From the IMG/VR virus record IMGVR_UViG_3300035698_029580: DNA of 64,000 bases; one strand, 5' to 3'. How positions within the stretch are numbered: the stretch's first letter is position 1; the number at the start of each line of letters is the position of its first letter. Source of the DNA: a virus. Lineage: Duplodnaviria; Caudoviricetes. Under the pieces are notes generated by a model, which saw only the letters and a list, made by a program, of their open reading frames with translations, did not search any database and was not told the origin of the DNA. Shown one piece after another: positions 2,682 to 36,940 of the stretch. A program made the position numbers and the translations under genes.

Positions 2682-2753
2682 GCCCCAGTGGTATAATGGT
2701 TAAAATATTAGCCTTCCAAGCTAAAGATGAGGGTTCGATTCCCTTCTGGGGCT
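2682..2753 (+). tRNA. trnG: tRNA-Gly(UCC)
   Basis: GCCCCAG/CTGGGGC, TTAGC-CTTCCAA-GCTAA, TTCGATT. Confidence 0.92.
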
Positions 2754-3028
2754 ATTATAAAAATATAAATTAGTATTTTTGGAGGAACAAATATGGATAT
2801 GGATTTGTCATTTTTTATATTATTGTGTTTATTTTGTTTTTGCTTTGGTTCTTTTTTGTGTGATATTTATTATAAATTAAAAAAAAGAAAAATACAAAAA
2901 GATATTTTAATACTTAAAAAAGAACTGGCAAACAGAAGAAAAGAAGTAAATTAATTAAAAAAAACTCAGAAAGAAAGAAATGATTAGATGTAAATATTGT
3001 AAATATTTTGAGAGGGGAAAATAATAAG

Positions 3029-3418
3029 ATGAAGACAACGTATGCACACGATTGGGAGTTGCTGGGAGAAGAGAGGATAAGACGGTGGACAAACAGTTTT
3101 AAGCATACAGAACAAATAAAATCTCAAATTGAAGATCCACGAACAGTAAATTGTGAGATATTTTCATGGAAGAATGCCCCCTGTTTAGGAGGTCGTCATT
3201 ATTCTTTGAGAATCCAAGAGGAAAATAACCAATGGTGGTGTAATGATGAAAACTCTTGGGTAGAGATTAGTTGTGATAGCAATAATCGAGGCTTCTCACT
3301 AGAGGCAGAATGTAATAGTAGAGAGGAAGCTGAGGCTATACGAGACTTTGTAATTAACAGGGTATTTGGGAATCCAAGAACAAAAAAACGAAAAATGTGG
3401 AGGGTCGTTAATGATTAA
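3029..3418 (+). CDS. hypothetical protein
   Basis: ORF 3008..3418, ATG start at 3029 preferred. Confidence 0.65.
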   Translation: MKTTYAHDWELLGEERIRRWTNSFKHTEQIKSQIEDPRTVNCEIFSWKNAPCLGGRHYSLRIQEENNQWWCNDENSWVEISCDSNNRGFSLEAECNSREEAEAIRDFVINRVFGNPRTKKRKMWRVVND

Positions 3419-3899
3419 ATGTAAAGATTGTAAATATTTTGAAAGGGCAATGTGGCCTTCTTCTTTAGGAGGAGGAGAGCAATATGGCGGAAGTTGTCCA
3501 TTATTGCTTAAAGAATTGAAATTACACAATACTAACATCTTTTTCTGGGAAAAAATTTATATACAAGATACTTTTGGATGTATAATGGGAGTTGAGAAAT
3601 TAGAAATTTCTGAAACTGTTTTATATGGAATAGGTGATTATCTTGAAAATTATGGTTTATGTTTATTTTTGACTTATGAAAAAGAATTTTTAAAAAATGG
3701 GTATCAATCAGATACGTTTGAAGAAAATATATATAAGAAATTGAAATCTAAGGGTTTTTATGACGTAGGAGATGGTATTTGGGTGGGTGGATCTCGTGTT
3801 GAGAATATAAGAGATGATTATGAAAAAATAGTAGAAGCATTAGGATTTAAGTATAATAAAAAATTTGAAGAATTTGTATTAGATTGTGATGATGATTAA
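3411..3899 (+). CDS. hypothetical protein with N-terminal CxxC
   Basis: ORF 3366..3899, start MIKCKDCKYF overlapping previous gene end. Confidence 0.7.
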   Translation: MIKCKDCKYFERAMWPSSLGGGEQYGGSCPLLLKELKLHNTNIFFWEKIYIQDTFGCIMGVEKLEISETVLYGIGDYLENYGLCLFLTYEKEFLKNGYQSDTFEENIYKKLKSKGFYDVGDGIWVGGSRVENIRDDYEKIVEALGFKYNKKFEEFVLDCDDD

Positions 3900-3905
3900 T
3901 AAGAT

Positions 3906-3984
3906 TGCGGGCGAGTGGAACGGATATATAAACCACACGTGGTTTATATCCACGTAATACCAGTTTCGACTACTGGGTTTGCTA
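3906..3984 (+). tRNA. tRNA with UAU (Ile) anticodon on an initiator-like scaffold
   Basis: TGCGGGC/GTTTGCT acceptor with 1:72 mismatch, CGTGG-TTTATAT-CCACG, CCAGT-TTCGACT-ACTGG. Confidence 0.75.
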
Positions 3985-3989
3985 TTTAC

Positions 3990-4072
3990 AGTGGAATATG
4001 CAAGTGGCTAAAGCAGAAACCCTCATAAGGTTTTGGAGAAATCCTTCCCAGGTTCAAATCCTGGTTCCACTA
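3990..4072 (+). tRNA. tRNA-Met/Ile2(CAU) with long variable arm
   Basis: AGTGGAA/TTCCACT, AAACC-CTCATAA-GGTTT, variable hairpin GGA-GAAA-TCC, TTCAAAT. Confidence 0.85.
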
Positions 4073-4086
4073 GGATCATAAATTTA

Positions 4087-4158
4087 GGTGGTTTAGCTGA
4101 GTTGGATTAGCGGTGTCTTGAAGCGGCACAGAGTCAGGTCCGAATCCTGAAACCACCA
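4087..4158 (+). tRNA. trnF: tRNA-Phe(GAA)
   Basis: GGTGGTT/AACCACC, GTGTC-TTGAAGC-GGCAC, T loop TCCGAAT (non-canonical). Confidence 0.88.
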
Positions 4159-4174
4159 TTTTTTAGGAAAAAAT

Positions 4175-4570
4175 ATGTGTCAAAAATGTATTGATGCTGT
4201 AAAAGAGACATGGAAAGATTTACCAGAAGAAAATTATAGTGATTTATTAGTGGGAGCTACAGCTTTTCCCTGTAGTGGTCCAGAGGAAACAAGAAAGCAA
4301 TTGATAGAGATAGGAAAAAAGAGTAATTATAATTTAGAATTAGCTTTAGCAATTATTGATACTGAAACAGAAAAGCAAATGAGAGAAGGGGTTGATGAAT
4401 CTAAAATACCTAAGAGGAAGTTAAGGCAAATTAAATATACTGCTCGTTTTGCACGAGAAGCAAAGGATATAGGAATTAATTTAGACAAAGAGAAGTTAAG
4501 GCAAATTAAATATTCTGAGCAATTTGTACGAGAGGCAAAGGATATGGGGGTTAAGTTAAAAGATGAATAG
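4175..4570 (+). CDS. hypothetical protein with duplicated C-terminal repeat
   Basis: KLRQIKY...F.REAKD.G occurs twice. Confidence 0.75.
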   Translation: MCQKCIDAVKETWKDLPEENYSDLLVGATAFPCSGPEETRKQLIEIGKKSNYNLELALAIIDTETEKQMREGVDESKIPKRKLRQIKYTARFAREAKDIGINLDKEKLRQIKYSEQFVREAKDMGVKLKDE

Positions 4571-4616
4571 AAAAATTATTTTTTATTTTATAATATATAC
4601 ATTATTATTGATGTGA

Positions 4617-4698
4617 ACTCCCATGATGGAATAGGTAGACATGATAGATTTAGAATCTATTGCCGCAAGGCGTACTGGTTCGACTCCAGTTGGGAGTA
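4617..4698 (+). tRNA. trnL: tRNA-Leu(UAG)
   Basis: ACTCCCA/TGGGAGT, ATAGA-TTTAGAA-TCTAT, variable arm GCC-GCAA-GGC. Confidence 0.93.
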
Positions 4699-5114
4699 TT
4701 TATTAGCATAGTAATAATATCACTTGATATAAGTGATACAAGTGCTTTCATAATTTTCCAGCATTATAAAAAATTGGAGAATAAAGAAGAAACACGGGAT
4801 AATAAAAAAGAAAGAAAGGTGAAGTGATGGCAAAAATAGAGTTTATTAAAAATGTACACGATCAATATAAGTATGATATGGTGTTGACTACAACTATTCC
4901 AAAAACAGGTAAAGAGATAAAAACCACCATGGCAACAGTTTTCTGTGATGAAATAGGTGAGGCAGGAGCAGATAATTACCAATATAATTCCGTTACTGGT
5001 AAAAAAGAATACCTGAAACAGATAAACGCTGAACTGGTTTTTTCAGCAATATAGTTGAGAGTTTATCTGCTTGTCCTTAATTTTCCAGCAAAATAAAAAT
5101 TTTAGGATAGTAAA

Positions 5115-5585
5115 ATGAAGAAGGTACTATTAAGAAAAAGTGATTTTAAGTCAGATTTTAAATTTGATGAGATTGCAAATGTTGTAGGAGTCGATACTGC
5201 TTTTTCTAATAAAATAGTATTATTTGTTAAGGATTCAGTTGCCCTTTCTTCAACAGAGACAAATAAAGAGCAAATGAAAAAAATATTTGATAAAATAGAT
5301 ATGATGAATTTGACAGATGAATATGAAGTCCAGTGGAAAGATGAAAGAAGTTTATTTGAGAATAGAGAAAATAAAACTTTTTCTTCTAGAAAAGAGGCTA
5401 TTACTTATGTAAGGTATCAAATAGAAGATTTTGTACATATGCTAGATGATGGTGATGAAATAAAGATATTTGATACTAAAAAGTTAGTCTGTACTATTGT
5501 AAGAGTTGAAAAGAAAACAGATATAGAAGAAGAATTTCATAAAGCAATAACAGAGCCTGGGGATGTAGGTCTGAAAAATGAATAA
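5115..5585 (+). CDS. hypothetical protein
   Basis: ORF downstream of motif at 5081. Confidence 0.7.
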   Translation: MKKVLLRKSDFKSDFKFDEIANVVGVDTAFSNKIVLFVKDSVALSSTETNKEQMKKIFDKIDMMNLTDEYEVQWKDERSLFENRENKTFSSRKEAITYVRYQIEDFVHMLDDGDEIKIFDTKKLVCTIVRVEKKTDIEEEFHKAITEPGDVGLKNE

Positions 5586-5856
5586 ATATAAAAAATTTAT
5601 GGATAAACATAAAATGTTTGATGTGTCATTGACTGATGTATTAGCAAAAGTAGAGGATAAGTTAAAGGGAAAAAAATTAAATAAAGAAAATTTGGAACAA
5701 GCTCTTACTGAAATGGAAGCAGAATATAAAAGAGAAAATGAGGCAGATTGGAAGAAAGTAAGAGGCAAAATAAGAAGAGATTTTATTATTCAATTGGTAA
5801 CATTTGTAGCATTGCTTGGAGTTATTGCAATGACAGTTTTTTTAGTATTGCAATAA
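5578..5856 (+). CDS. hypothetical membrane-anchored protein; paralog of 5894..6145
   Basis: KLKGKKLNKENLEQAL vs KLKGKELNKENMEQAI; C-terminal hydrophobic helix. Confidence 0.7.
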   Translation: MNKYKKFMDKHKMFDVSLTDVLAKVEDKLKGKKLNKENLEQALTEMEAEYKRENEADWKKVRGKIRRDFIIQLVTFVALLGVIAMTVFLVLQ

Positions 5857-5893
5857 AAATATTTGAAAATAGATTAGAAAAGGGAGTCTTATT

Positions 5894-6145
5894 ATGAGAA
5901 AATTATCTGATATAAAGATTAATTTAAATGATTTTTATGAAGAAGTATTAAAAGAGCTAATGCAAAAAAGAGTAGGAATTAAATTAAAGGGAAAAGAATT
6001 AAATAAAGAAAATATGGAGCAAGCTATTGATGAGGTAATAGCAGAAGCCGAATTAGAAAATCAGGCAAATATGAGGGAACATGGTTTAACCATAGTAGAT
6101 GAGGCAGATATGAAGAAAGAGAATAAGCAGATAAGAAAGGAATGA
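5894..6145 (+). CDS. hypothetical protein; paralog of 5578..5856
   Basis: Shared motif; GGAG RBS. Confidence 0.7.
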   Translation: MRKLSDIKINLNDFYEEVLKELMQKRVGIKLKGKELNKENMEQAIDEVIAEAELENQANMREHGLTIVDEADMKKENKQIRKE

Positions 6146-6272
6146 ATACAAAATATAATAGATACAATAGGATTTTGGTCTATTTTTATTGGTTCTATTG
6201 TTGTTTCTATATTGTTTGTTTATTTTGTTTTTCACTAAAATAAAAATCTTTGAAAATTGAATAGAGAAAAAT

Positions 6273-6586
6273 GCGGGTGTGGCGGAATTGGCAGACGCTG
6301 AAAGTTTTGGCGTCTAAAAATTGGGCAAAAACGGTGAAGGCTGAGATGCTAATATCGTGCTAAATAATCAGATTACGAAAGGCTGATTGTCAGTGTAGAG
6401 CATAGAAGGTGAATAAATATAATCCTTCCACGAGTGCCCAACAATCGAAAGATTGAAAATATATGCCGAGCTACAATAAAATCAAGTTGTAGAACTATGG
6501 GATAAAAAGCCTATAGGATAACATAACTGGGGGCCTTAAAAGCCCCTGCTCGTAAGAGCATGGAGGTTCAAATCCTCTCACCCGCA
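6273..6586 (+). tRNA. trnL: tRNA-Leu(UAA) split by group I intron (exons 6273-6299 and 6530-6586)
   Basis: GCGGGTG/CACCCGC acceptor, D arm GGCGGAATTGGCAGACGC, GGGGC-CTTAAAA-GCCCC, long variable arm, TTCAAAT. Confidence 0.92.
6300..6529 (+). mobile_element. group I self-splicing intron (IA-like, no endonuclease ORF)
   Basis: P1 AGACGCU/GGCGUCU with U.G at splice site, P3 TTGGGCA/TGCCCAA, P7 GCATA/TATGC, P8 CAATC-GAAA-GATTG, terminal G at 6529. Confidence 0.88.
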
Positions 6587-6716
6587 TTATTATTAACTTG
6601 ACAGAAATGGTATACATTTTTTATAAAGGAGTTTTCGTCATTATTCTGATTGATTAAGATAATTATTTTTCCAGCAAAATAATTATCTTAGCCTATAAGT
6701 AGAAAGGTATTAAAAA

Positions 6717-6944
6717 ATGGCAAAATTAATATGTCCTGAATGTGGTAGTAAAAAAGTAAATACTAGTATTAAGGATTATCCTTTTTTTTATGGAAAAAAG
6801 GGAAGTATTCAAATTGAATTAACTGCTTGTGATATTTTAGTAAGAAATTGTACAAATTGTGGTTTTAGTTTTATAGACGATGAAGCAGAAAAAATAATGG
6901 AAAAAGCAATTTCTGATTATTTGGAAAAAAAAAATGAAGATTAA
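6717..6944 (+). CDS. YgiT/MqsA-type zinc finger protein
   Basis: CPECG...CTNCG with MqsA-like spacing. Confidence 0.65.
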   Translation: MAKLICPECGSKKVNTSIKDYPFFYGKKGSIQIELTACDILVRNCTNCGFSFIDDEAEKIMEKAISDYLEKKNED

Positions 6945-7290
6945 ATTGACGAGATTACAATCTAAAATATTAAGACATCAATTAGGGTTTTCAGATCGTT
7001 TAGCTGATGTGTTGGGTGATGAGTTTGGATTTTCGAGGGAAGATGTTGAAATTACTGCTAATTTGTTATTCATTAATTTAACCAATAAAGAAATAGATAT
7101 TTCTGAGGCAAACTCATTTAGTGAAAGTATTACTGAGGAAATATTAATTGAGTGTGTTGAAGATTCTACTTGGATAAGTTCTATGATGGAGAATGAGTCA
7201 GAAAGAAAAATTTCTGCTCATATTAGAAGTTTAGAAGATTTAACACAAAAAATAAAAGAGAGTACAGGACATAAGGTGATAAAATGTTAG
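6934..7290 (+). CDS. hypothetical protein
   Basis: ORF coupled to previous gene. Confidence 0.7.
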   Translation: MKIKLTRLQSKILRHQLGFSDRLADVLGDEFGFSREDVEITANLLFINLTNKEIDISEANSFSESITEEILIECVEDSTWISSMMENESERKISAHIRSLEDLTQKIKESTGHKVIKC

Positions 7291-7324
7291 TATTAAGTAG
7301 ACAAAAATAAATAATTTTTTTAAA

Positions 7325-7406
7325 GCTCTCATGGTGGAACAGGCATACACGGTAGTTTCAAAAGCTATTGCCGAGAGGCATACTGGTTCGACTCCAGTTG
7401 GGAGTA
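7325..7406 (+). tRNA. trnL: tRNA-Leu(CAA)
   Basis: GCTCTCA/TGGGAGT, GTAGT-TTCAAAA-GCTAT; 3' end identical to tRNA-Leu(UAG). Confidence 0.9.
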
Positions 7407-7459
7407 TTATTTTTCAGCATTATAAAAATCTTAATATATAAGTAGAAAGGTGAAGAAAA

Positions 7460-7759
7460 ATGAGTGAGTCATTATCTGATAAATTGAAGAATGAGGTTAA
7501 GAGTAGCAATAAAAAGGCTAAGGGAAAAAGTCCTGGGAAGGGAAGAAATTTAGATGCAACTCATTTATTGAAAATTAAATATATTCCTAAGGATTATGAT
7601 GCTGATAGGATAGATATTTGTCCTTTATGGGGTAATTTCTTTCGTTTGAATTTTTGGAAGAAGAATGGGGAACGTTTTGTTACTTCTGAAATTATTGTAC
7701 ATTCAATTTTTTTGAAGGCAGAAGCAGCAATGGATGGATTAGTAGTGAAGGAATATTAA
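7460..7759 (+). CDS. hypothetical protein
   Basis: ORF with AAGGTG RBS. Confidence 0.7.
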   Translation: MSESLSDKLKNEVKSSNKKAKGKSPGKGRNLDATHLLKIKYIPKDYDADRIDICPLWGNFFRLNFWKKNGERFVTSEIIVHSIFLKAEAAMDGLVVKEY

Positions 7760-7760
7760 A

Positions 7761-8075
7761 ATGGGTTGCTATGATTATTATATTTCAGATGATGAGAAAA
7801 TTTGTGTTCAACTTAAGGTTGGAGAATGTCTTTTAAAGGAATATAAAGTAGGAGACAAGGTAAATATTTCAGATGGTATTTATTTTGGGCATGAGGGAGC
7901 AGTTGTTATTAAGGGAGGAGAATTTATTGCTATTTTTGGTGAGGATCAAGTTTTTGATAAGTGGGGAGGGGCATTTGATTTTTGTAGTAAACTAAATAAT
8001 GTTATCAAGGAAGAAATTAATATTATTGAGGAAGAGGTACAAGTCCTTAAACAAAATCTTCTAAAAGAATTTTAA
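7761..8075 (+). CDS. hypothetical protein
   Basis: ORF in operon. Confidence 0.7.
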   Translation: MGCYDYYISDDEKICVQLKVGECLLKEYKVGDKVNISDGIYFGHEGAVVIKGGEFIAIFGEDQVFDKWGGAFDFCSKLNNVIKEEINIIEEEVQVLKQNLLKEF

Positions 8076-8105
8076 AGATAAAAATTAATTTATTTTAAAA
8101 AAGTA

Positions 8106-8133
8106 TTGACAAGTGTTTAGGAAGTCGTATAAT
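8106..8133 (+). promoter_or_regulatory. consensus sigma70 promoter TTGACA-N16-TATAAT
   Basis: Exact -35 and -10 hexamers. Confidence 0.75.
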
Positions 8134-8139
8134 GGAAGA

Positions 8140-8259
8140 TAGTCCCCTCAGGAGGGGGAGTATTTAGCAAAAATGTTTCGAATCTTAGGTGAAAGAGACG
8201 ACAACAATTTTGCTATAAGGTGCTTTGATATAACAACTTATGTCAAAGCATCTTTTTTT
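8140..8259 (+). ncRNA. candidate small RNA with own promoter and terminator
   Basis: Hairpins TCCCCT/GGGGGA and TAGCAAAA/TTTTGCTA, then terminator; no ORF. Confidence 0.55.
8219..8259 (+). terminator. rho-independent terminator
   Basis: GGTGCTTTGATATA/TATGTCAAAGCATC + T7. Confidence 0.75.
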
Positions 8260-8349
8260 ATGATTATTTTCCAGCATTATAAAATTTGATTGATATAAGC
8301 AGAGAAAGATGTTAGAATAAAGAACTGAAGAATTTTTATAGGTAGTAAA

Positions 8350-9639
8350 ATGTCAAATGTTGTAGAATATCGAAAATTTATTTGTGTAAATTTTGAAGAT
8401 TCCAACAATAATAAGATTTGGAACATCAAATTATACGATAATGATGATGTTGAAGTTGAATGGGGGAGAGTAGGGAAGGGTCTTCAGTCTAAACCTCATT
8501 ACGGTGGGGGCAGACATAAATTTGACTCTTTAATTAAGAAGAAAACAAATCCTCGTAATTCTGCTGATAAACATTATTCTGAAAATAAAGTAGTAGAAGG
8601 TGTGTCATCTACTTCTTCTTATAATCATGATTTAAAGAAAATTGCAACGGAACAAATTAAAACAAAATCACAAATTGTTATAAATTTGATTGAATATTTA
8701 ACTAAAGTAAATGCACATAATATTTTAGTAGCAACAAATGGAAGTATTGAATTTGATACATCTACTGCTCAATTTAAGACTCCTCAAGGTATTATCGTAC
8801 CCGAACAAGTACAGATAGCAAGGCAATTGCTTGCTGATATGTCTGATTTCGTAAGGATGGAAAACTGGAGTAATCCATCTTTTCGTAAATATATGAATGA
8901 ATATCTAAGACTTATTCCTCATGATGTAGGAATGAAGAAGATTGAGCCAAAGGCAATTATTCCTACTGTAGATGTATTACAACGTGAGAATGATATTTTA
9001 GATGGATTAGAGACCTCATTTATTGATGTTACAACTCAGCCTAAAAATGATAAAGAAGAAGTGGTTGTTCCTAAAATTTTTGATGTAGAAATTGATTTAG
9101 TAGAAGATAAAAAAATCTTTGATAAAATAAATAAGTGGTGTGACAGTAGTAGAAAGAGATCTCACAGTTGTAGTCATTTGAGATTAACTCGCCTTTATTC
9201 TGTTAGAATAAATGGTATGGGAAAACGTTTTGAAGAGATATCTCATAAATTGGGTAATGTTAAAGAACTATTTCATGGGACAAGTGATCAAAATTTACTT
9301 TCAATATTGAAAAATGGATTAAAGATTACTCCTCCCAGGACAGCTAAAATTACCGGAAAAATGTTCGGAAACGGAGCGTATTTTGCTTCGAGTAGCTCAA
9401 AAAGCTTAAATTATAGTTATGGTTATTGGGGTGGAACCAGAAAGAATAAGTGCTATATGTTTGTTGCGTCCGTGTGTTTGGGGAAATATTATGTTCCTAA
9501 TAGTGGATGGGGTTCTTTGCCTAGATCTGGTTATGACTCTACTTGGGCAAAGTCTGGTATTTCTGGTGTTATTAATGATGAGATTGTTATTTATAAAGAG
9601 AACCAATGTAACTTAACATATTTGTTGGAGTTTAATTGA
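8350..9639 (+). CDS. poly(ADP-ribose) polymerase-like protein (WGR + helical + catalytic domain)
   Basis: EWGRVG; EYLRLIPH; catalytic FHGT, GKMFGNGAYFA, NDEIVIY (H-Y-E triad). Confidence 0.92.
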   Translation: MSNVVEYRKFICVNFEDSNNNKIWNIKLYDNDDVEVEWGRVGKGLQSKPHYGGGRHKFDSLIKKKTNPRNSADKHYSENKVVEGVSSTSSYNHDLKKIATEQIKTKSQIVINLIEYLTKVNAHNILVATNGSIEFDTSTAQFKTPQGIIVPEQVQIARQLLADMSDFVRMENWSNPSFRKYMNEYLRLIPHDVGMKKIEPKAIIPTVDVLQRENDILDGLETSFIDVTTQPKNDKEEVVVPKIFDVEIDLVEDKKIFDKINKWCDSSRKRSHSCSHLRLTRLYSVRINGMGKRFEEISHKLGNVKELFHGTSDQNLLSILKNGLKITPPRTAKITGKMFGNGAYFASSSSKSLNYSYGYWGGTRKNKCYMFVASVCLGKYYVPNSGWGSLPRSGYDSTWAKSGISGVINDEIVIYKENQCNLTYLLEFN

Positions 9640-9650
9640 AGGAATAATTT

Positions 9651-9794
9651 ATGAAATTTCGTGGATTTTTATATTGGTTAGCAAAGATACTTGGTGATAT
9701 AAATGCCGTTAAAAAAGGCAAAGTAGGTAGACGAGTAGGAAGAAGAATTGCTGGAAAAGTAACAGGCAGATTTTTAGGAAAATTATTTAAATAA
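9651..9794 (+). CDS. 47-aa highly cationic small protein (not in ORF track)
   Basis: AAGGA RBS; MKFRGFLYWLAKILGDINAVKKGKVGRRVGRRIAGKVTGRFLGKLFK. Confidence 0.7.
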   Translation: MKFRGFLYWLAKILGDINAVKKGKVGRRVGRRIAGKVTGRFLGKLFK

Positions 9795-9804
9795 GGATTA
9801 AATC

Positions 9805-10212
9805 ATGTTTTCTATGGATGCTTTATCACAGGCTGTTTTTGAATATGTATATTTATTTGTAGAACAGAAAAGAATATTTTCTTTTTATGATATAGTAAAA
9901 GGTTTAGGTAAGGAAACAGAAGGATTACATTTTCCAGATGATGACAAAAGATGTAATTTTTTTCATAAGTTATTTAAGTTTTCTAATCCTCCACAATCTC
10001 CCTTATTTTTAAGACAACAATTAGAAGAAATAATAAATAGTTGTGAAATTTATTTTAAGCAGAACGGTTATACAAAAACCCTATTAAAAACCAATTTAAA
10101 AAATATAAAAAAGTATTTTATTTTATATGATAAGCCTGTCATTTGGGTATATTATCCTACTGACAAAAATTCAGAAGATTATGAATTTGCAGAAAAGAAG
10201 TCTAATTCTTGA
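9805..10212 (+). CDS. hypothetical protein, homologous to N-terminus of 13081..13686
   Basis: FSFYDIVK/FTAFDLTK and GYTKTL shared. Confidence 0.7.
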   Translation: MFSMDALSQAVFEYVYLFVEQKRIFSFYDIVKGLGKETEGLHFPDDDKRCNFFHKLFKFSNPPQSPLFLRQQLEEIINSCEIYFKQNGYTKTLLKTNLKNIKKYFILYDKPVIWVYYPTDKNSEDYEFAEKKSNS

Positions 10213-10366
10213 AATATTGAGTCATTTTAAAATTTTTCAGCATTATATAATTGCTGTTATATAAGGCAGAGGATTAAGGTTGGATTATTTTCCAGCATTA
10301 TATGGTAGAGTAGTATAGTATGTATTTTTTAATGTTTTTTGAACTATTTCAGAAAGGACAAGTGTC

Positions 10367-11794
10367 ATGAATTCAAGGACGAAGAAACTAAATGTTAGAA
10401 GAAAATGTCAAAAGAAGGTTGCAAAGGCAAAGGCAAAGAAGAAAGCTGTAAGGGCAAAGAAGAAAGCCTTGACATATACTGTTTCTGAGGCAAGGAACAA
10501 GTCTAAGACAAATATTGTTCTAGACAAAAGACAGAAAATGCTATTAAGAAGTATTGAACGTGCTGCTTGTCGCGGTTCTATTCAAAAATATCCTACTCCC
10601 TTGGATTATTGTAGAAAAATAATGGGAAAAATAAGTGAAGGGGGATGGGTAGGAGATGATGAGAAAATTTTATTCTGTTATGAAACAGATACTTATAAAA
10701 AGATATTTTGTGAAAAAACGTTCCATAGGGGAACGAGCAAAAAAGCTTTGCAGGGTAAGATTTTGGTTTTGTTTAATCCAGAGTTTGCCTTTGTTCTTAC
10801 TGAGGAATTAGAAATAGATCCTAAAAATATTACTTTTGTTTCCGATTCAAGAGAGAGAATTGGAATAGCAAAGAAGATGGGTGTAAATTGTGTACATATG
10901 CAAAAGAAAGATTTGGTACAAAAAGTCAAAGAGGGAGATTATATTTTGAAAAAGAAATTTAAATTTATTTTTGGTAATTTTCCTTTTCAAGCGGAACAAC
11001 CAAGAAAAGAGGGAAGAGGGAAGAGTGGAACTTCATTATGGGATAAAATTCTTATTTCATCTTTAATGTCCTTAGAAGAAGATGGTTATCTTGGTGTTAT
11101 TCATCCTAGTCGATGGAGAAAACCAAAAAATAAACTTTGGAGCATTATGAAAGATAGACAGATTCATTATCTTGAAATTCATAATGTTGAAGATGGACTA
11201 AAAGCATTTGGAGCACAAACAAGATATGATTTATATCTTTTACAGAATTGTGCTAATACTAAAGATACTACTATTGTAGACGAAAAAGGCAATGTATCAA
11301 ATGTTAATATAAAAGATTTACCCTTTCTTCCTAATGCAGAAATTGATAAAATATTATCTTTAGTAGCAAAACCAGGAGAAGAAAAAGTAAATTTGTTACA
11401 TAGTTGGACGGAATATGAAACTCGTAAATCTCATATGTCTAAAGAAAAAACGAAAAAATATAAATATCCTTGTGTGTATATGATTGACAAAGATGGTGAA
11501 GTTACCTATTGTTACTCATCAATTAAATATGGTCATTTTGGAATTCCTAAAATGATTTTTCCCAGTGGAGATATGAGAAGTATTGATTATTTGATTGATA
11601 GCAAGGGAGAATATGGATTGACACAATATGCCAAAGGTATTGTTGATACTCCTAAGAATTTACCTTTGATTTATAAGGCAATGTCATCTCCCGAGTTTAA
11701 AAAATTAGCAAAATATTTCTGTATGTCATCCACAGAAATAGATAAAGATATTATTAAATATTTCAGGAAAGATTTTTGGAAAGAATTTGTTTAA
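10367..11794 (+). CDS. Eco57I-type DNA adenine methyltransferase-like protein (motif IV + TRD)
   Basis: FIFGNFPFQ, LW..I, GYLGVIHPSRW; basic N-terminus; motif I degenerate. Confidence 0.75.
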   Translation: MNSRTKKLNVRRKCQKKVAKAKAKKKAVRAKKKALTYTVSEARNKSKTNIVLDKRQKMLLRSIERAACRGSIQKYPTPLDYCRKIMGKISEGGWVGDDEKILFCYETDTYKKIFCEKTFHRGTSKKALQGKILVLFNPEFAFVLTEELEIDPKNITFVSDSRERIGIAKKMGVNCVHMQKKDLVQKVKEGDYILKKKFKFIFGNFPFQAEQPRKEGRGKSGTSLWDKILISSLMSLEEDGYLGVIHPSRWRKPKNKLWSIMKDRQIHYLEIHNVEDGLKAFGAQTRYDLYLLQNCANTKDTTIVDEKGNVSNVNIKDLPFLPNAEIDKILSLVAKPGEEKVNLLHSWTEYETRKSHMSKEKTKKYKYPCVYMIDKDGEVTYCYSSIKYGHFGIPKMIFPSGDMRSIDYLIDSKGEYGLTQYAKGIVDTPKNLPLIYKAMSSPEFKKLAKYFCMSSTEIDKDIIKYFRKDFWKEFV

Positions 11795-11865
11795 TATTTA
11801 TTTGCAGATGGAAACCGATAATCCTCTAATGATGAGGGTTATCGGTTTTATAGGAGTGAGGTGAT

Positions 11866-12468
11866 ATGAGCATAAAAAGAGAAAGAAGAAAAGAAAAAGA
11901 AAGAAGAAAATCGGAGAGAAGAGAAGTATATAGGAGAAATGAAGACAGAAGAGAAGCAAGGAAAAAACGAACAGCAGAAATTTTTACTCCCAACTATTTA
12001 GTTAATAGGGTATTTGATTCGGCTCCTGATGATGTATGGGAAGAAGGTGAACTATTTTTAGATCCTGCATGTGGAAATGGTCAATTTCTTGTGCTTGCAT
12101 TAATTAGAAAAATTGGAAAAGGACATGAACCACTTGAAGCATTAAGAACAATTCATGGTTGTGATATCATGAAAGATAACATTAGAGAATGTCGTCTAAG
12201 ATTACTAAAACAAATTAGTGTAGTCGAGACTATAACGGAAGACCATATAAAAGCAGTTTTCAGGAATATTGTATTTCTTAATCGTCAACGATATCCAAAG
12301 GGTGTTTTAAATTATGATTTTTCATTTAAGACAAGATATAATTTACAGAATGTAGCAGAGTGGTTAAGAAAAGTATCGGAAGATGATATGCTTGATGAAG
12401 TTGACTTACTTGTTTTGCCTGAAGATGCACCATCCAATAGAATAGATATGTTTGAAGAACCTGATTAA
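11866..12468 (+). CDS. N6-adenine methyltransferase SAM-binding domain protein
   Basis: EIFTP, FLDPACGNGQFL, IHGCDI; no NPPY seen. Confidence 0.8.
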   Translation: MSIKRERRKEKERRKSERREVYRRNEDRREARKKRTAEIFTPNYLVNRVFDSAPDDVWEEGELFLDPACGNGQFLVLALIRKIGKGHEPLEALRTIHGCDIMKDNIRECRLRLLKQISVVETITEDHIKAVFRNIVFLNRQRYPKGVLNYDFSFKTRYNLQNVAEWLRKVSEDDMLDEVDLLVLPEDAPSNRIDMFEEPD

Positions 12469-12584
12469 AATGTAAGAAATAACGATCGTTGTTTCTGACA
12501 TTTTCCAGCATTATATTTATTAGCAGTATAGGGTAGAAATTTAAGGTTGAATTGTTTTTCATCATTATAGGATTAAAGCAAGAA

Positions 12585-12977
12585 ATGGTTATTGAAAAAT
12601 ATATTTGTGATGGTTGTAAAAAGTCTTATTCTAGAAAAGAAATTCCTTTTAAATGGATAAAAATTAAATTGACTTATTATGATGAATTTGATAAAGAGAA
12701 AAATTTATACTATCATTTTTGTGAAAATTGCAAAACAAAATTCAAGAAATATATACCTTTGTTAAAATTTAGAAAACCAATTAAAGAAAAAATTAAAAAA
12801 ACCATCAAAGAAAAAAAAGAATGGAAAAACAAATTATTAGATATGGAAAAAGAATCTATTATATTTGCATTAAAAAAGATGAGAGGCAATAGACAGGATG
12901 CTATCAAAGAATTAGGAATGCCAGAAAGAACATTTTTTAGAAAAATGAAAAAATATGATTTATATGATGTTGTTTAA
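12585..12977 (+). CDS. zinc-finger + Fis-type HTH protein
   Basis: CDGC..FCENC; EKESIIFALKKMRGNRQDAIKELGMPERTFFRKMKKY. Confidence 0.8.
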   Translation: MVIEKYICDGCKKSYSRKEIPFKWIKIKLTYYDEFDKEKNLYYHFCENCKTKFKKYIPLLKFRKPIKEKIKKTIKEKKEWKNKLLDMEKESIIFALKKMRGNRQDAIKELGMPERTFFRKMKKYDLYDVV

Positions 12978-13080
12978 AAACTCTTAGAATTTTCCATCAT
13001 TATAAAAAATGGTATAATAGGTTAGAAAGACAGTTATAAACTATCGGAGAAAACTAGGTAATTTTTGAAAGGACCAAGAA

Positions 13081-18668: not shown

Positions 18669-19316
18669 ATGTACTTGGATGTGTGTTTCAAATTACAGGC
18701 TGATTTTATTGCACTAAATCATAATTATCAATTATGGGAGGCTCTTGCTGAAAAGTTTGCTTTTCTCAGATATGATGAAGGTAAAACAATTGGTATTGAC
18801 TCTATCAATGGAAAAGCAATAAAATCAGGGAATGGCAGTGGAAATGGAGTAGATACTTTGGAAATTACTTCTCGTTCTATCTTGAGAATAAGGACTCCTA
18901 TTCAACATGTTAATCCTTTTCTTGAAATGTGTGATACTCAATTCCAAATTGATGATGATTTGCTTGAGATTTATAATCCTCACGTATATCCACTTAATCC
19001 TTCCTGGGCACTATGGGGTCGTATGATAGCTTATAGAGGCATAATGGACCCAGAAGGTGTATTAGAGGCAGTGAGAATGGAACTAAATAATATGGGGATT
19101 TCTTCAGATGTTCAGTTGAAGATACCTACTTATGAAGATTCAGGTGCTCCTAAATTGAGCTTTCTGATGATACAAGATAAGAAGATAGTAGGTTTTCCCA
19201 TGTATATTTATGAATTAAATAATGAAGATTCTATGAAGGTTCAAACTCATGGAGTCGGTGATTTTCATCACTTAGGTTGCGGAATATTTTTGCCAGAAGT
19301 AAAAAAAATTAGTTAG
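18669..19316 (+). CDS. cas6: stand-alone Cas6 (Cmx6/I-MYXAN-like) endoribonuclease homolog
   Basis: LDVCFKL...NHNYQLWEAL, S.LRIRTP, L..EDSMKVQ..GVG....LGCGIFLP glycine-rich C-terminal loop. Confidence 0.85.
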   Translation: MYLDVCFKLQADFIALNHNYQLWEALAEKFAFLRYDEGKTIGIDSINGKAIKSGNGSGNGVDTLEITSRSILRIRTPIQHVNPFLEMCDTQFQIDDDLLEIYNPHVYPLNPSWALWGRMIAYRGIMDPEGVLEAVRMELNNMGISSDVQLKIPTYEDSGAPKLSFLMIQDKKIVGFPMYIYELNNEDSMKVQTHGVGDFHHLGCGIFLPEVKKIS

Positions 19317-19736: not shown

Positions 19737-20231
19737 ATGAACTGGTATATCCAAGCACAATTAAATATACATGGAGAACCATTAGAATTTCAAGATAGAA
19801 CAGATGTTCCGTTTTATGATGATATGTTATCCGAAAAAGAATTGGATTGGTACGATCATACAACTAGACAACATAAAGTTGGTCCAAAAAAACAGTATAT
19901 GAAAGAAGTTAAAAATAGGACAGCAGATATTCAATGGATGAGTCCTGATGAGTATATAAATAAATGTGCAGAAGGTTTTTATGAATACTCTGATCCACGA
20001 ATAAAAGAAAAATTTCAAAATGTTTCTGAATATAAGGAATGGATTCTTAATACTAAACAAGAAGATTTAATTAGAGGATATTCAGATAGATGGATAAATG
20101 GAGAAAAACCTCCAATGGTTTATTTGACGTATAAAGATGGTGAATTTTATGGGCAAGAAGGATTACATAGAGCAATTATGGCAAAAAGACTTGGATTAGA
20201 AAAGATACCTGTATTGGTGGCTAATGAATGA
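19737..20231 (+). CDS. MNWY-tagged protein with ParB/Srx-like domain
   Basis: MSPDEY..., QEGLHRAIMA..LG..KIPV. Confidence 0.7.
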   Translation: MNWYIQAQLNIHGEPLEFQDRTDVPFYDDMLSEKELDWYDHTTRQHKVGPKKQYMKEVKNRTADIQWMSPDEYINKCAEGFYEYSDPRIKEKFQNVSEYKEWILNTKQEDLIRGYSDRWINGEKPPMVYLTYKDGEFYGQEGLHRAIMAKRLGLEKIPVLVANE

Positions 20232-20533
20232 ACTGGTATAAAACATCACAATCGTATAATACAGAAGAAGTATCTCTCGAGTGGTTAACTCGTCATAAAA
20301 TTCCTATGGAAGGAAATAAATATGTTTTATATCATGGAAGTCCTAAAAATAATAATCTAACTGAATTAAGAAGTCAGTCTCTTTTAGCGGAAGATCAAAA
20401 AGATGCTCGTTTCTTTGCTGCTAGAGATAGGGGACTTCAGCCAGAAGATATAGTAGTTTATAAAATATTAGTAGAACCATCAGATATAAATGCGGGTGTT
20501 TTTGCGTCATTAAATAGAATTTATAAATTATGA
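20228..20533 (+). CDS. MNWY-tagged protein, possible ADP-ribosyltransferase-like fold
   Basis: LYHGS...LLAED...ARFFA. Confidence 0.55.
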   Translation: MNWYKTSQSYNTEEVSLEWLTRHKIPMEGNKYVLYHGSPKNNNLTELRSQSLLAEDQKDARFFAARDRGLQPEDIVVYKILVEPSDINAGVFASLNRIYKL

Positions 20534-21126
20534 ACTGGTATAAAAAAGCACAAACTACAGATAAACGATGGCAATATGACGAAGATACTATGCTTGATTA
20601 CTATGAGAGACAGAATGAAATCATGATGGAACAGGTTCAAAATTTCAATTATTCAAAACCTGGAGATCGTCAGCCATGGAGGTTAATACCACTGCCAAGA
20701 TTAAAAAAAATATGGGCAGATTATGTTAGAATGGGATTTGTGAGGGATGAACGAGGCATCTCACTTATTGAAAATATTATAATAGAAAATGTAAGAAAAA
20801 TTGAAGCGAATACAATTCTTATGGGTCATACATCTCATAGAGTTGAAGATATGTGAAATGATTATGAAATGACAATGAATGAAACAAATGAGCATGATTT
20901 TTCCGATTGGGCGGTTGATGATAAGGGAAGTTGGAGAATTTCTGATTATGCTCTAGGCAATCTTGTCAATGGAACTCTAGAACTTATGCAAGCAAAAACT
21001 CCCGAAGAGAAGTTGCAAAAAATAGATTTTATTCTTAATGTAGTTCATCAGAGATCAGACATTGCTTCTTGGTTCGTAGAAGGAGGAATTGGAGGATTAG
21101 ATGAATTGAGTAATCAACAGATATGA
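20530..21126 (+). pseudogene. MNWY-tagged gene interrupted by in-frame TGA at 20854-20856
   Basis: ORFs 20530..20856 and 20869..21126 are in the same frame with only the TGA between. Confidence 0.6.
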
Positions 21127-21704
21127 ACTGGTATAAACAAGCACAAACTACAGATACCCTAGATTATTTTGCTGAATTAGATATCTTTCCTGATATTGAA
21201 AAGACAAATAGTCTTATTGAAGAAAAGGTCAATGCTAAAATATTGGGAGAAATAGGTAGAGGAGATAATGGCATAGCATATGACATGAGCAATGGAGATG
21301 TTCTTAAAATAACTACAAATTCTCAAGAATATAAAGTTGCTATTTATCTTATACAAAATCCAAATAAATATATTGCTGAGTATAAACAGGCTTGGCAAGA
21401 CGGAGATTTATATTTTATTGTAATAGAAAAATTAAAAGATATGGTAGTAAATCACCCTACAATTAAATCGTATTTTTTAGATTTGGTGCAAATAGCCAAA
21501 CAGAAATCCTGTTATAATCAATTTTGTTTCTTAGATATATTAGAAAATAATCCTTATATTAATTCTCATCCATATACACCAATAGTAAAAAATTATTTGG
21601 ACCATTTATCTGGAATTTCTTCTCTTAGATTATTTGATATAATTAATCCGGCTAATATCGGCATATCACAAGATGACCAATTAAAGTTTTTTGATATAAA
21701 TTAG
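21123..21704 (+). CDS. MNWY-tagged protein kinase-like protein
   Basis: IGRGDNGIAY, VLKIT, D....N catalytic-loop-like, LKFFD. Confidence 0.7.
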   Translation: MNWYKQAQTTDTLDYFAELDIFPDIEKTNSLIEEKVNAKILGEIGRGDNGIAYDMSNGDVLKITTNSQEYKVAIYLIQNPNKYIAEYKQAWQDGDLYFIVIEKLKDMVVNHPTIKSYFLDLVQIAKQKSCYNQFCFLDILENNPYINSHPYTPIVKNYLDHLSGISSLRLFDIINPANIGISQDDQLKFFDIN

Positions 21705-32150: not shown

Positions 32151-32459
32151 ATGATTATTACTACTGTAAAAGAAGAAAAAATATGCGACCTCTGTAGAAA
32201 AGAGGATGAACAAATAAAATCTAAATATCAATGCCAAATATGTAAAAAAGATGTTTGCTCCTATCATACTAAATCTTTTACCTTCTCCAAACCCACTGTA
32301 AAAAAACAAATTAATCAAGATTATTCATGGGAAAATCAAAAATATATTATCTCCTGTGTTGATTGCTATAAAATTATAATGGAAAAATTTGATATATTAG
32401 AAAAAAAATTAGAACAATTCTATGAAAAAGAATGTCTACCTCTACTTCCAAAGGATTAA
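32151..32459 (+). CDS. B-box-like zinc finger paralog 1
   Basis: CDLC..CQICKKDVCSYH..CVDC + C-terminal helix. Confidence 0.75.
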   Translation: MIITTVKEEKICDLCRKEDEQIKSKYQCQICKKDVCSYHTKSFTFSKPTVKKQINQDYSWENQKYIISCVDCYKIIMEKFDILEKKLEQFYEKECLPLLPKD

Positions 32460-32559
32460 CTAATGACAGTTGTTAATATAGAAGTGAAATAAAAAATGTA
32501 CGAAAATAAGATAAATGAATTGTTCAATAAAAAATAATGTTCAAAGGGAGGATTAAATA

Positions 32560-33408
32560 ATGAAATGTAAAGCCTTTACTCTAGTAGAACTGTTAGTAGT
32601 TATTGCTATTATGGCTGTTCTTATGAGTATCCTAATGCCCGCCCTATCACAAGCTAAATATCAAGCCATGAGAACACAATGCCTTGCCAATGTTAAAGCT
32701 CAACATATGGCACAATATATGTATGCAACAGATTTTGAAGGAAAATTTGCCCCACATCCAGGTCCGGCTCCCTCATATGTCAGAGCCTATGGTAATAAAA
32801 AAAATAATTGTATATATGGACTATTTAAAGATTCAGTACATATGGAACAATCACAAATCCTCTGGTGCCCCATCCTAGCATCAAGATTGTCCTGGTTCAT
32901 AGGTACAGGTTGGGATAAAAGCCCTTTAACTTGTTTCCGTGAACTGGAAATGATAAATGAAATAAGCGACTCGTATGCTAATTGGAACTATGAACAAGAT
33001 CCAGATTTTAACCCCTCTCAAGATTATGACTATGAAACAGGACAAGGAAAATATGGATATGTGAGTATGTCATATCTCTGGTTCTCTAATTTTCAAAATG
33101 TTAATAATCCCAGCTGGTTCAAATTTGATTATAATGGAAGTCCAGTTAATACTACTCCCTGGCCTAAAAATCTCAGAGAAGCTAGAGAAGATTCTGCTAT
33201 GATTTCTCATTCTGTTACTCTTAATCCAACTATTATTGCTGATTATTCCCATAAAGGGGCTGGTTTCTCTTATGATATTCTGTCATTTGAAGATTATTCC
33301 GAAACAGCAGATACTCCCGTAGGCTATGGCGATGGACATACCGAAATGATACCTAGACCTGATGTTCTGCCAAGAGTAAATATCAATAATACTATCTATT
33401 TCTATTAA
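32560..33408 (+). CDS. prepilin-type N-terminal cleavage/methylation protein (DUF1559/H-X9-DG-like)
   Basis: KAFTLVELLVVIAIMAVLMSILMPALSQAK..A....C..N, MYA.D, WCP, GYGDGH. Confidence 0.9.
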   Translation: MKCKAFTLVELLVVIAIMAVLMSILMPALSQAKYQAMRTQCLANVKAQHMAQYMYATDFEGKFAPHPGPAPSYVRAYGNKKNNCIYGLFKDSVHMEQSQILWCPILASRLSWFIGTGWDKSPLTCFRELEMINEISDSYANWNYEQDPDFNPSQDYDYETGQGKYGYVSMSYLWFSNFQNVNNPSWFKFDYNGSPVNTTPWPKNLREAREDSAMISHSVTLNPTIIADYSHKGAGFSYDILSFEDYSETADTPVGYGDGHTEMIPRPDVLPRVNINNTIYFY

Positions 33409-33533
33409 AATTCTTAATATTTTTTCCCGCGAAAATAATTAAATTCAAAAAATTTCCTATCAAAGTGAAAACTTTTCCACTATAAAGGAAATTAATTATG
33501 ATTAAATCAACTTCCGAATAAGGAGTAATTAAA

Positions 33534-33863
33534 ATGTCAAATACTAAAAAATGTGATTTCTGCGAAAAAGAAGCAATACATAAATGCGATATCTGTAAAA
33601 AAAATGTCTGCGAAAAACATATTAGTGAAAATCCCTATTATACTCATCCTACTCTTATCTGTAATTATTATAGCATACTATATAGACAAGAATCCACTAT
33701 AGCAGTTTGCTCAAAATGCGAAAAAGAAAATAAAGAATTAAAAAATGTACTAAAAGAAGAAAAAAAAATCCACCAAAGATATATTTCTACAATAAATGGT
33801 ATAATGAAAGTAATTAATAAAGAAACTCAACCTCTATGGAAAAAACTACTCAATAAGGAGTAA
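33534..33863 (+). CDS. B-box-like zinc finger paralog 2
   Basis: CDFC..CDICKKNVCEKH..CSKC. Confidence 0.75.
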   Translation: MSNTKKCDFCEKEAIHKCDICKKNVCEKHISENPYYTHPTLICNYYSILYRQESTIAVCSKCEKENKELKNVLKEEKKIHQRYISTINGIMKVINKETQPLWKKLLNKE

Positions 33864-33866
33864 TCA

Positions 33867-34244
33867 ATGTCCACCATTAAAGTAAATAAAATAATCTGCG
33901 ATTTCTGCCCTAAAAATAGCAAAACTCAGGCAGACGATAGGTGTTATGTCTGCGGTAATGATATGTGCCATAAACATAAACATTTTGTTAAATATTATTT
34001 TAATATGTATTGCGAACCATATATTATAATACATCAAAATAATGATTCATTTACTATTTGTCCCTCCTGCCACGAAAAAATGATAAAATATGATAATAAA
34101 TTAGACAAAAAAAGAAATAAAGTATTAGAAAAATATAAATCCCAATTATTAGAAATTATATACAAAATGAGTGAAGAAGTACAAAAAGAAAAAAATGAAT
34201 TGTGGGAATTATGTAAAAATCAAAAAAAGGTAAATAAACAATGA
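33867..34244 (+). CDS. B-box-like zinc finger paralog 3
   Basis: CDFC..CYVCGNDMCHKH..CPSC. Confidence 0.75.
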   Translation: MSTIKVNKIICDFCPKNSKTQADDRCYVCGNDMCHKHKHFVKYYFNMYCEPYIIIHQNNDSFTICPSCHEKMIKYDNKLDKKRNKVLEKYKSQLLEIIYKMSEEVQKEKNELWELCKNQKKVNKQ

Positions 34245-34603
34245 CAACTATCTATAATCAAAAAAAATTGTGCGATATATGCCTAAATGAGGAAAAAGAA
34301 GTAATAGCAGATTCATCCTGCCATTTCTGTAATAATGATATCTGCGAAAAACATAATAAATCCTTCTCTACTCATAATCCATTCCTAATTAAATTCTATG
34401 AAATATCCTATAAAAGAAAACGTGTCTTCTGTCTATGTCCTAATTGCTTCAACCTCTTCAAAGAAAAAATTAATGATGTTATAATGAAAGAATTTAACCT
34501 TAAACAAAAATATATCTCTAAAATGGGAAATGACTTCAAAGAACTAAAAAATGAAACCGATGAACTATGGGAAAATCTATTAGAAAAACTCGATATTTTA
34601 TAA
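34241..34603 (+). CDS. B-box-like zinc finger paralog 4
   Basis: CDIC..CHFCNNDICEKH..CPNC. Confidence 0.75.
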   Translation: MTTIYNQKKLCDICLNEEKEVIADSSCHFCNNDICEKHNKSFSTHNPFLIKFYEISYKRKRVFCLCPNCFNLFKEKINDVIMKEFNLKQKYISKMGNDFKELKNETDELWENLLEKLDIL

Positions 34604-34653
34604 CTTAATTTTTTCCGCGAAAATTAATAAAAATCCCCTAAAAGGATTAACCA

Positions 34654-35040
34654 ATGGCAATTGTTAAAGTAGATCAAACCATCTGCGATATCTGTAACGA
34701 AACAGGAACGAAAATAGGAATGAAAAATGCAGCAAGTGGAATATGCTGCGTCTGTAAAAAAGATATCTGCTATCACCATACATCTAAACATCTCCTCTAC
34801 TCCAATTTTATCCAATGCGAAAATTATAAAGTGATACGTAATATAATGAGATTGCCAATCCTCTGCGAAAATTGCTATGAACTCCTAATTGATAAAAAAT
34901 TGTATAAAATAAAAGAAAAAGAAGAACAAATATATGAAAAATATGAAAAACAACTAAATGAAATACTTAATCAAATCCATCAAGAATCTGAAGAAGTATG
35001 GGAAATACTATTGGAAAATCTTAATAATCCCATAACTTAA
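34654..35040 (+). CDS. B-box-like zinc finger paralog 5
   Basis: CDIC..CCVCKKDICYHH..CENC. Confidence 0.75.
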   Translation: MAIVKVDQTICDICNETGTKIGMKNAASGICCVCKKDICYHHTSKHLLYSNFIQCENYKVIRNIMRLPILCENCYELLIDKKLYKIKEKEEQIYEKYEKQLNEILNQIHQESEEVWEILLENLNNPIT

Positions 35041-35167
35041 TATTTTTTTCGCGGAAAATTAAAGAATTCCTTAAAATAATAAATCCCCCTTATTAATAAA
35101 TAAATAAAGATTTTTAATCATTTAATTATATAAGTACATATATAAATAAATAAAGAAAGAATATAAT

Positions 35168-35593
35168 ATGTCAACTAAAATGATAAAACAAACCTTCTGC
35201 GATATCTGTAGTGAATTAGATATAAAACAATTAGCAAATAATAAATGCTCCATCTGTAAAAAAGATGTCTGCGATGATCATCTAAATCATAAAATTATAA
35301 ATCCAGTAAATCATAAAATTATAAATCCAGTAGTAAGAAATAGTATGCTATCTACTCATAATCCAGTTTTGTGCGATATATATAATGTAACCTGTATTAA
35401 TTCAATAAAACTATCCGTCTGCTCCAATTGCTCAAAAAATAGTGCCAATAATATAATCTATGAAGCACAATATAAAGAAATTCAAATACATATACATAAA
35501 AAATATATGACAAAACTAAATGAAATACTTAATTAACTATATCAAGAAGTTGAAAGAGTATGGGATAATCTGTTAAATTTAAATGATATTTAA
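35168..35593 (+). pseudogene. B-box-like zinc finger paralog 6 with premature TAA at 35534-35536
   Basis: Frame continues LYQEVERVWDNLL, matching paralog 5 (QIHQESEEVWEILL). Confidence 0.65.
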
Positions 35594-36801: not shown

Positions 36802-36940
36802 TTTTCCAGCAAGAATTTCTTTTTATTTAGCACTGAATGCTGGAAAATTAAATTGATATAATTTTTCCAGCATTATTTTATTATTTGAGAATTTTAATGC
36901 TGGAAAATAAAAGTTTGATAATTTTTCCAGCATTAAAATT
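36802..36940. repeat. cluster of five TTTTCCAGCA motifs in alternating orientation, ~60-bp period
   Basis: + at 36802, 36863, 36923; - at 36838, 36898; 18-bp perfect inverted arms. Confidence 0.85.

Follow-up and report, generated by a model that had tools for sequence, protein, structure and literature searches.

The DNA analysed here, called the window throughout, is a stretch of 64,000 nucleotides (nt) from an uncultivated giant bacteriophage, the IMG/VR virus record IMGVR_UViG_3300035698_029580 (Duplodnaviria; Caudoviricetes). It is AT-rich (~30% GC), phage-type DNA with nearly all of its genes on the + strand, and it encodes, among others, eight tRNA genes, a PARP-like gene, a DndB-like gene and one solitary Cas6. 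Our subject is an array of genes within it whose products open with a common octapeptide, MNWYKx[AS]Q or a close variant of it (hereafter the tag), which precedes proteins of different kinds (the cargos; Table 1). A sequence-only reading of this DNA had described four co-directional genes that share an N-terminal MNWY(K/I)x(A/S)Q, are mostly coupled by ATGA overlaps and diverge beyond the tag, and the list of open reading frames (ORFs) bears this description out. Three junctions are ATGA overlaps, because Met-Asn (ATGAAY) always provides a TGA stop in the +1 frame for the upstream gene. Beyond the tag the four proteins are 19-27% identical in a forced alignment, and their DNA flanks cannot be aligned, apart from a 35-nt 5′ block that genes 3 and 5 have in common but for a single mismatch (20530-20564 and 21123-21157; MNWYK[KQ]AQTTD); this block is longer than the tag and therefore suggests gene conversion or leader exchange between neighbours. 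No further MNWY start occurs in any of the window's six frames, and the degenerate DNA pattern of the tag matches four times, against 0.00 expected from 100 dinucleotide-preserving shuffles.

Table 1. Genes of the tagged array and their N-terminal leaders; all positions are those of the window.
Feature	Position	Strand	Product	Leader	Leader position	Remark
Tagged gene 1	19737..20231	+	164 aa	MNWYIQAQ	19737-19760	
Tagged gene 2	20228..20533	+	101 aa	MNWYKTSQ	20228-20251	
Tagged gene 3	20530..20856	+	108 aa	MNWYKKAQ(TTD)	20530-20553	in-frame TGA stop at 20854-20856
ORF 4 (gene 3/4 C-terminal half)	20869..21126	+				untagged; same frame as gene 3
Tagged gene 5	21123..21704	+	193 aa	MNWYKQAQ(TTD)	21123-21146	

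ORF 4, which had been taken for an independent, untagged gene interrupting the array, proved to be the second, C-terminal part of gene 3. One homologue of 206 amino acids (aa), P0053, aligns with gene 3 over its residues 3-108 (E 9e-38) and with ORF 4 over its residues 123-206 (65% identity, E 2e-37). Since the two together align end to end with single proteins of ~200 aa such as P0053, the array consists of four tagged genes, one of them split. Genetic code 4, in which TGA is read as Trp, was considered for the break and rejected, as TGA terminates genes 1, 2 and 4 at the ATGA overlaps; TGA being a genuine stop, the interruption is a nonsense break or a split gene rather than the mark of another code. 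The stop falls where the homologues have F, L or V, and may represent a nonsense mutation, a genuine split or a site of read-through.

The search of related viruses that the sequence-only reading had proposed found the DNA pattern for MNWYKx[AS]Q 69 times in IMG/VR, in 55 stretches on 35 contigs of 28-48% GC, where it opened ORFs of 28-1235 aa, nearly always with a stop a few codons upstream. In complete genomes of 296-548 kb there are 1-10 copies each, and the reversed pattern, used as a control, was absent from them; in three complete megaphage genomes the pattern occurs 10, 9 and 3 times, and at the ORF level there are 12 tagged genes in the genome that we call G002 and 5 in G003. When the first ten residues of 78 tagged ORFs were removed, the remainders fell into 52 BLAST clusters, among which Pfam recognised helix-turn-helix (HTH) regulators, GNATs, G6PD, an aldo-keto reductase, the Thoeris inhibitor Tad6, a P-loop kinase, cREC_REC, a nucleotidyltransferase, a methyltransferase and an SLT lysozyme. 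With some 50 cargo families on many large viral contigs, the expectation that the tag is portable between unrelated proteins stood up, and the opposite case, a tag limited to four local genes, is contradicted by its recurrence on the 35 contigs. As an ORF start the tag is essentially restricted to viruses: 596 Gb of bacterial and archaeal genomes yielded 30 matches to the pattern, about 25 of them chance occurrences in ORFs of 5-40 aa or deep within longer ORFs, and the five convincing ones all lie on short, AT-rich contigs of metagenome-assembled genomes. The window region had no blastn match in 50,697 phage records, and a full-text literature search for the motif and related concepts found no published description.

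This distribution bears on the possibility that the shared start is a functionless by-product of local tandem duplication, or of mis-called starts, as the adjacency of the four genes and the 11 N-terminal residues common to genes 3 and 5 might suggest. The proteins and their flanks are unrelated beyond the tag, however, stop codons precede nearly all tagged starts by a few codons, and a local event does not account for so many viral contigs, base compositions and cargo families; we regard this explanation as highly improbable. No gene family in the neighbourhood of ~58 tagged loci recurs at more than four of them, and no recurring candidate for a maturase-type modifying enzyme, as would be found beside the genes of a leader system like that of ribosomally synthesized and post-translationally modified peptides, was seen at those loci. 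The absence of a conserved neighbour indicates that whatever reads the tag acts in trans.

Conservation acts mainly on the protein. Synonymous variation is found at every degenerate site of the tag (Asn AAC 59% and AAT 41%, Tyr TAT 81%, Lys AAA 82%, Gln CAA 87%), position 6 accepts many residues, and conservation ends sharply after Q8. The variants MSWYK, MNWFK, MNWYR and MSNWYK preserve residue chemistry rather than bases. Within the gene 5 family (30 members, down to 36% identity) M1-K5 are invariant, as strictly as the catalytic residues, while positions 6-8 drift (KAN, RAI, TTQ). The gene 1 and gene 3 families carry the tag on close relatives and lack it on distant ones; for gene 1, the distant homologues P0032 (34% identity) and P0033 (30%) are untagged.

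A different reading of the same conservation would have the 5′ coding sequence serve as a signal at the nucleotide level, whether as a translation-initiation enhancer, an operator (RegA-like) or a microhomology for cassette exchange, the peptide being incidental. Several features agree with it: AAC encodes Asn in all four tags of the window and in 59% of 68 tags, against 21% in gene bodies, GCA makes up 73% of the Ala codons of the tags against 34%, sites resembling a Shine-Dalgarno sequence are rarer in tagged genes (40% against 53% in untagged ones; p 0.011, duplicates included), ATGAAY supplies the upstream gene with its stop codon, and genes 3 and 5 share the 35-nt block. Such a signal is nevertheless difficult to reconcile with the synonymous variation at every degenerate site and the freedom of codon 6, with variants that keep residue chemistry (MSNWYK even has a codon inserted after the ATG), with the strictness of the tag, equal to that of catalytic residues, in an alignment reaching 36% identity, and with tag-like motifs, described below, that lie inside proteins, between domains or in a head protein, where translation does not initiate. 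We therefore consider a nucleotide-level signal very unlikely, and both it and local duplication are largely excluded. A secretion signal was likewise rejected, the tag having no hydrophobic core and the cargos being cytosolic enzymes. The tag, then, is portable, virus-restricted, under selection at the protein level and structurally detached from its cargo.

The structural detachment is seen in the AlphaFold2 models of the products of genes 2 and 5 (predicted local distance difference test, pLDDT, 87-89), in which only the first eight or ten residues fall below a pLDDT of 50. Searches of the four cargos against Pfam and PHROGs gave no significant match, and phmmer and profile searches of the PDB returned weak matches only, to kinases and sulfiredoxin. 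Of the domain labels proposed earlier, kinase-like was confirmed and ADP-ribosyltransferase (ART)-like was supported by the predicted fold; ParB/Srx-like stands as a motif-level resemblance only.

The kinase-like label belongs to gene 5, whose model (pLDDT 87.4; residues 1-10 below 50) matched APH(2'')-Ia in Foldseek (E 2e-7, probability 1.0, template modelling score 0.43). K62, E69, D172, N178 and D191, which answer to the VAIK Lys, the alpha-C Glu, the catalytic D..N and the DFG Asp of the bilobal protein-kinase-like fold, are invariant in 30 sequences of the family, and the protein ends two residues past the DFG-like Asp, as a minimal version; the model thus confirms a predicted minimal protein-kinase-like/APH-like fold with five catalytic positions conserved. 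The family of gene 2 has 17 members and keeps the tag, with an invariant His36 in YHG[ST]. Its model (pLDDT 88.7; residues 1-8 below 50) gave KptA/Tpt1 as the top match in a wide VIA-align search (Z 7.0, root-mean-square deviation 2.7 over 82 aa), in a list made up mostly of ART-fold proteins; the best Foldseek match reached only E 0.7, and the protein, with its 101 aa, falls short of the length of known ARTs. The modelled fold supports a minimal ART-fold domain whose nearest relative would be KptA/Tpt1. The gene 1 cargo carries a C-terminal GQEGLHRA..LG..IPVLV motif like that of ParB/sulfiredoxin; Pfam gave no match for it, nor for its distant homologues with the threshold relaxed to E 5, sulfiredoxin came up weakly (E 1.2) when the PDB was searched with a profile, and the Atlas clusters that match it have ParB_N on 15-23% of their members.

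The domain split between gene 3 and ORF 4 belongs to a family with 369 hits, in which it occurs either alone (~200 aa) or within giant proteins, and 20 of 150 representatives carry the tag. The giant members (2135-2575 aa) also contain ART-PolyVal, cREC_REC, PARP, GNAT, SprT and SLT domains. In fused relatives (P0060, P0074 and P0114 are such proteins) a tag-like motif, SEWYKKAQ or AFNLK[KQ][YH]KxAQ (e.g. AFNLKQYKKAQ), lies ~20 residues past the end of the domain, at the junction with the next one. That the array is an exchange point for cargo, as had been proposed, is only hinted at, by the near-identical 35-nt block of genes 3 and 5 and by these fused forms with internal tag-like motifs. A separate observation concerns untagged homologues of this domain, twelve of which (P0058, P0065, P0072, P0075, P0076, P0083, P0084, P0100, P0104, P0145, P0146 and P0191) start with M-x(2-6)-[IL][IL]-x-E-E-[IVY]-x-x-[FLY]-L-x-E, a sequence that includes T4-like (I/L)-x-E motifs and could be a second leader for this cargo, specific to a lineage.

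The giant proteins correspond to the polyvalent proteins known from phages and from conjugative elements, for which Iyer et al. (2017; PMC5512222) predict packaging and delivery alongside the invading DNA. The tagged cargos resemble them in repertoire, with ART, kinase, ParB-like, GNAT, SLT and cREC_REC domains in common and Tad6 also counted among the matching cargos, and the gene 3/4 domain itself occurs inside them. They differ in architecture: polyvalent proteins join two to fifteen effector domains in one polypeptide, from which they are released by an MPTase or another peptidase, whereas the tagged genes of the window encode small, separate proteins (101-193 aa) that have one domain and one N-terminal label apiece.

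The second half of the tag, residues 5-8, matches a short motif, K-x-A-[QSE], that also marks head proteins of four tag-bearing megaphages (G001, G002, G003 and G005). Pfam families for the T4 protease, the HK97 capsid, gp23 and terminase had no match in G001-G003, and the head module was located by motif scoring and then by PHROGs. In the complete 548-kb genome G002, the sole ORF with a repeated FN[LW]K..AQ encodes a 454-aa protein with three copies ~150 aa apart (FNLKKAQ, FNLKKTAQ and FNWKEAQ), at positions that are conserved in G003. This protein adjoins the portal gene (phrog_16240, E 1.7e-43) and lies near the gene for an 1868-aa protease-scaffold, whose N-terminal domain matches the head maturation protease family phrog_18299 and gp19 of phage G (PMC12484599). 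With a first definition of the motif, K.[AS]Q, no ORF of G002 was significant after multiple testing. With K.A[QSE], the three highest-scoring of its 408 ORFs by composition-corrected excess are the portal, the protease-scaffold and the 454-aa neighbour.

The pattern K.A[QSE] was fixed before the tests on G003, G001 and G005. The four orthologous protease-scaffolds are enriched in it 3-6-fold, with 12 sites observed against 2.5 expected in G001, 8 against 2.6 in G002, 15 against 2.7 in G003 and 12 against 3.3 in G005. In G003, which has 48% GC and a protease-scaffold 35% identical to that of G002, none of 2000 shuffles reached the 15 sites, and three neighbours in the head module rank within the top seven ORFs. 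Twelve permuted or substituted motifs gave sums of 4-22 across the four protease-scaffolds, against 47 for K.A[QSE]. When the tag is defined by residues 1-5 only, 15 of 37 tagged proteins, against ~2% of untagged ones, have K.A[QSE] within their first 20 residues, and where residues 5-8 deviate it sometimes lies a few residues downstream, as in MNWYRRLKLAQ and MNWYRILTARVKKIAS. Among the four protease-scaffolds, that of G002 contains 11 K.A[DNT] sites and each of the others 3-4, and the tags of G002 include MNWYKKAN. Also in G003, a 245-aa ORF at 466727-467464 (loci L138/L006) contains four K-x-A-S sites, where 0.23 would be expected, and has WKTASK as its last residues; an ATGA overlap connects it to the start of a tagged gene, which begins MNWYKQAQ.

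We consider it an evenly balanced proposition that, in a clade of uncultivated megaphages, the head-assembly machinery reads MNWYK-x-[AS]-Q in trans as a portable N-terminal address tag. Support for such loading is indirect and comes, at the sequence level, from the cargo types shared with polyvalent proteins and from the match to the head motif. The MNWY(K/R) part would dock a protein to the interior of the prohead, on the scaffold or the protease core, and K-x-A-[QSE] would be the site at which the head maturation protease trims the tag. The four enzymes of the window (ParB/Srx-like, KptA-like ART, polyvalent-type domain and minimal kinase) would then remain inside the capsid and reach the next host along with the DNA, so that the system would amount to an 'unbundled' polyvalent protein in which each domain has a label of its own. 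Docking, cleavage, packaging and injection of the tagged proteins are steps that we infer. More tentatively, and with somewhat less confidence than in the address tag itself, we suggest that this clade as a whole, with genomes of ~300-550 kb, relies on a two-part code, an MNWYK address and a K-x-A-[QSE] protease site, to load dozens of separate effectors in place of fused polyvalent proteins.

The nearest precedent would be the capsid-targeting sequence (CTS) of T4, which is found on the internal proteins IPI-III and Alt and is removed by the prohead protease gp21 (PMC3012670, PMC9026906). As in T4, a short N-terminal peptide is common to otherwise unrelated proteins within a single phage and is detached from the fold of its cargo, which includes an ADP-ribosyltransferase (Alt in T4, a putative one here). 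The tag may also, like the CTS, end in a motif found again in scaffold and protease proteins of the head. The two peptides have no sequence similarity, however, the CTS being MKTYQEFIAE with L/I-x-E and the tag MNWYKxAQ with K-x-A-[QSE]. The protease also differs, since here it would be the N-terminal domain of a ~1850-aa protease-scaffold related to gp19 of phage G; PF03420 (Peptidase_S77, gp21-type) had no match in five tag-bearing genomes, in a search that matched no control genome either. Far more cargo families carry the MNWYK tag, and packaging and cleavage are proven for the T4 system whereas the present one is known from sequence. If the tag is read as belonging to a capsid-loading system, the best-supported analogy is therefore a likeness to the T4 CTS in function, with no relationship in sequence.

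A second comparison is with phiKZ-like giant phages such as SPN3US, in which ejection and inner-body proteins are processed by the prohead protease (PMC5694885, PMC10052503). There too, propeptides are found at the N-termini of many head-internal proteins and are cleaved at a short consensus site that serves for the scaffold and capsid proteins as well, but these propeptides are long and do not share one octapeptide, and these phages are cultured, with virion proteomics. The cleavage site of phiKZ-like phages is of the S/A/G-x-E type.

Several observations weigh against head loading. A strict K.A[QSE] is present in only ~40% of tags sampled without bias and in two of the four of the window, gene 1 (IQAQ) and gene 2 (KTSQ) being without it, and that the motif is a cleavage site at all is something we infer from its sequence; the paper on phage G (PMC12484599) states no cleavage rule. 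The link to the head is extrapolated from other genomes, 16 of the 122 ORFs of the window being shared with G002 or G003, and in those two genomes the tagged genes lie mostly far from the head module. The array itself is far from any recognisable head gene, among genes of early type (tRNA, PARP, Cas6) and in a 24-kb block without recognisable promoters. Among the cargos, G6PD, an aldo-keto reductase and HTH regulators would be unexpected inside a virion or as injected effectors. The tag was not met in any cultured phage: phage G, the one cultivated megaphage with proteomics, lacks it, and three cargo families (those of genes 2, 5 and 3, the last represented by two members) had no tblastn match in the 50,697 phage records.

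The main rival reading is a tag that does not load the capsid but is read in trans by another machine of the phage, either as a degron or handle for a phage-encoded protease or unfoldase that would time the removal of host-takeover enzymes, or as a label for a location other than the capsid. The tag is exposed and disordered in the models, no maturase is linked to it, metabolic enzymes and regulators are among its cargo, and the array lies among early-type genes. Such a machine would, however, leave unexplained why the second half of the tag matches a motif enriched in the portal, the protease-scaffold and their neighbours, and why the cargo repertoire mirrors that of polyvalent proteins, and we consider it rather unlikely.

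In the remainder of the window, a highly conserved promoter-like element, TTTTCCAGCA, occurs at 1225-12999 and 36802-63878, where it is followed 18-20 nt on by TAAAAT and then by an A-rich leader with AAGGA. It lies upstream of ~45 genes of the + strand, with 57 matches against 9 expected. The 13-36.8 kb block that contains the MNWYK genes has none, which places this block in a different transcription class. At 36802-36932, five copies of TTTTCCAGCA/TGCTGGAAAA in alternating orientation and with a 60-nt period mark the boundary between the promoter-free and promoter-rich parts, beside a dip in GC skew at 30-36 kb; this cluster could be an operator cluster or an origin-like region. The solitary Cas6 gene (18669-19316; Pfam E 1.6e-40) is located two genes upstream of the array, and neither a CRISPR array nor any other cas gene was detected in the window. 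The PARP-like protein (8350-9639) has WGR, PARP regulatory and catalytic domains and is 47% identical to its orthologue in G002. At 32212-35292 there are five or six paralogous small genes with a conserved, zinc-finger-like C-x-x-C...C-x-x-x-H segment (repeat families D13 and D16).

If the tag is indeed a head-loading label, it would provide a sequence rule for predicting which proteins giant uncultivated phages bring into the cell as infection starts, anti-defence enzymes (ARTs, kinases and Tad6, for example) among them; and should the two-part code hold, a genome would suffice to list the injected proteome of a phage that was never grown in culture. It would also supply a candidate cleavage rule for a large and unstudied family of head proteases, and a compact peptide that is a candidate for packaging foreign proteins into phage heads. 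For the evolution of these viruses, it would represent a second answer to the problem of co-delivery, which polyvalent proteins have solved by fusion. Should the tag do something else, it would still be an undescribed, trans-acting sorting signal covering some 50 protein families.

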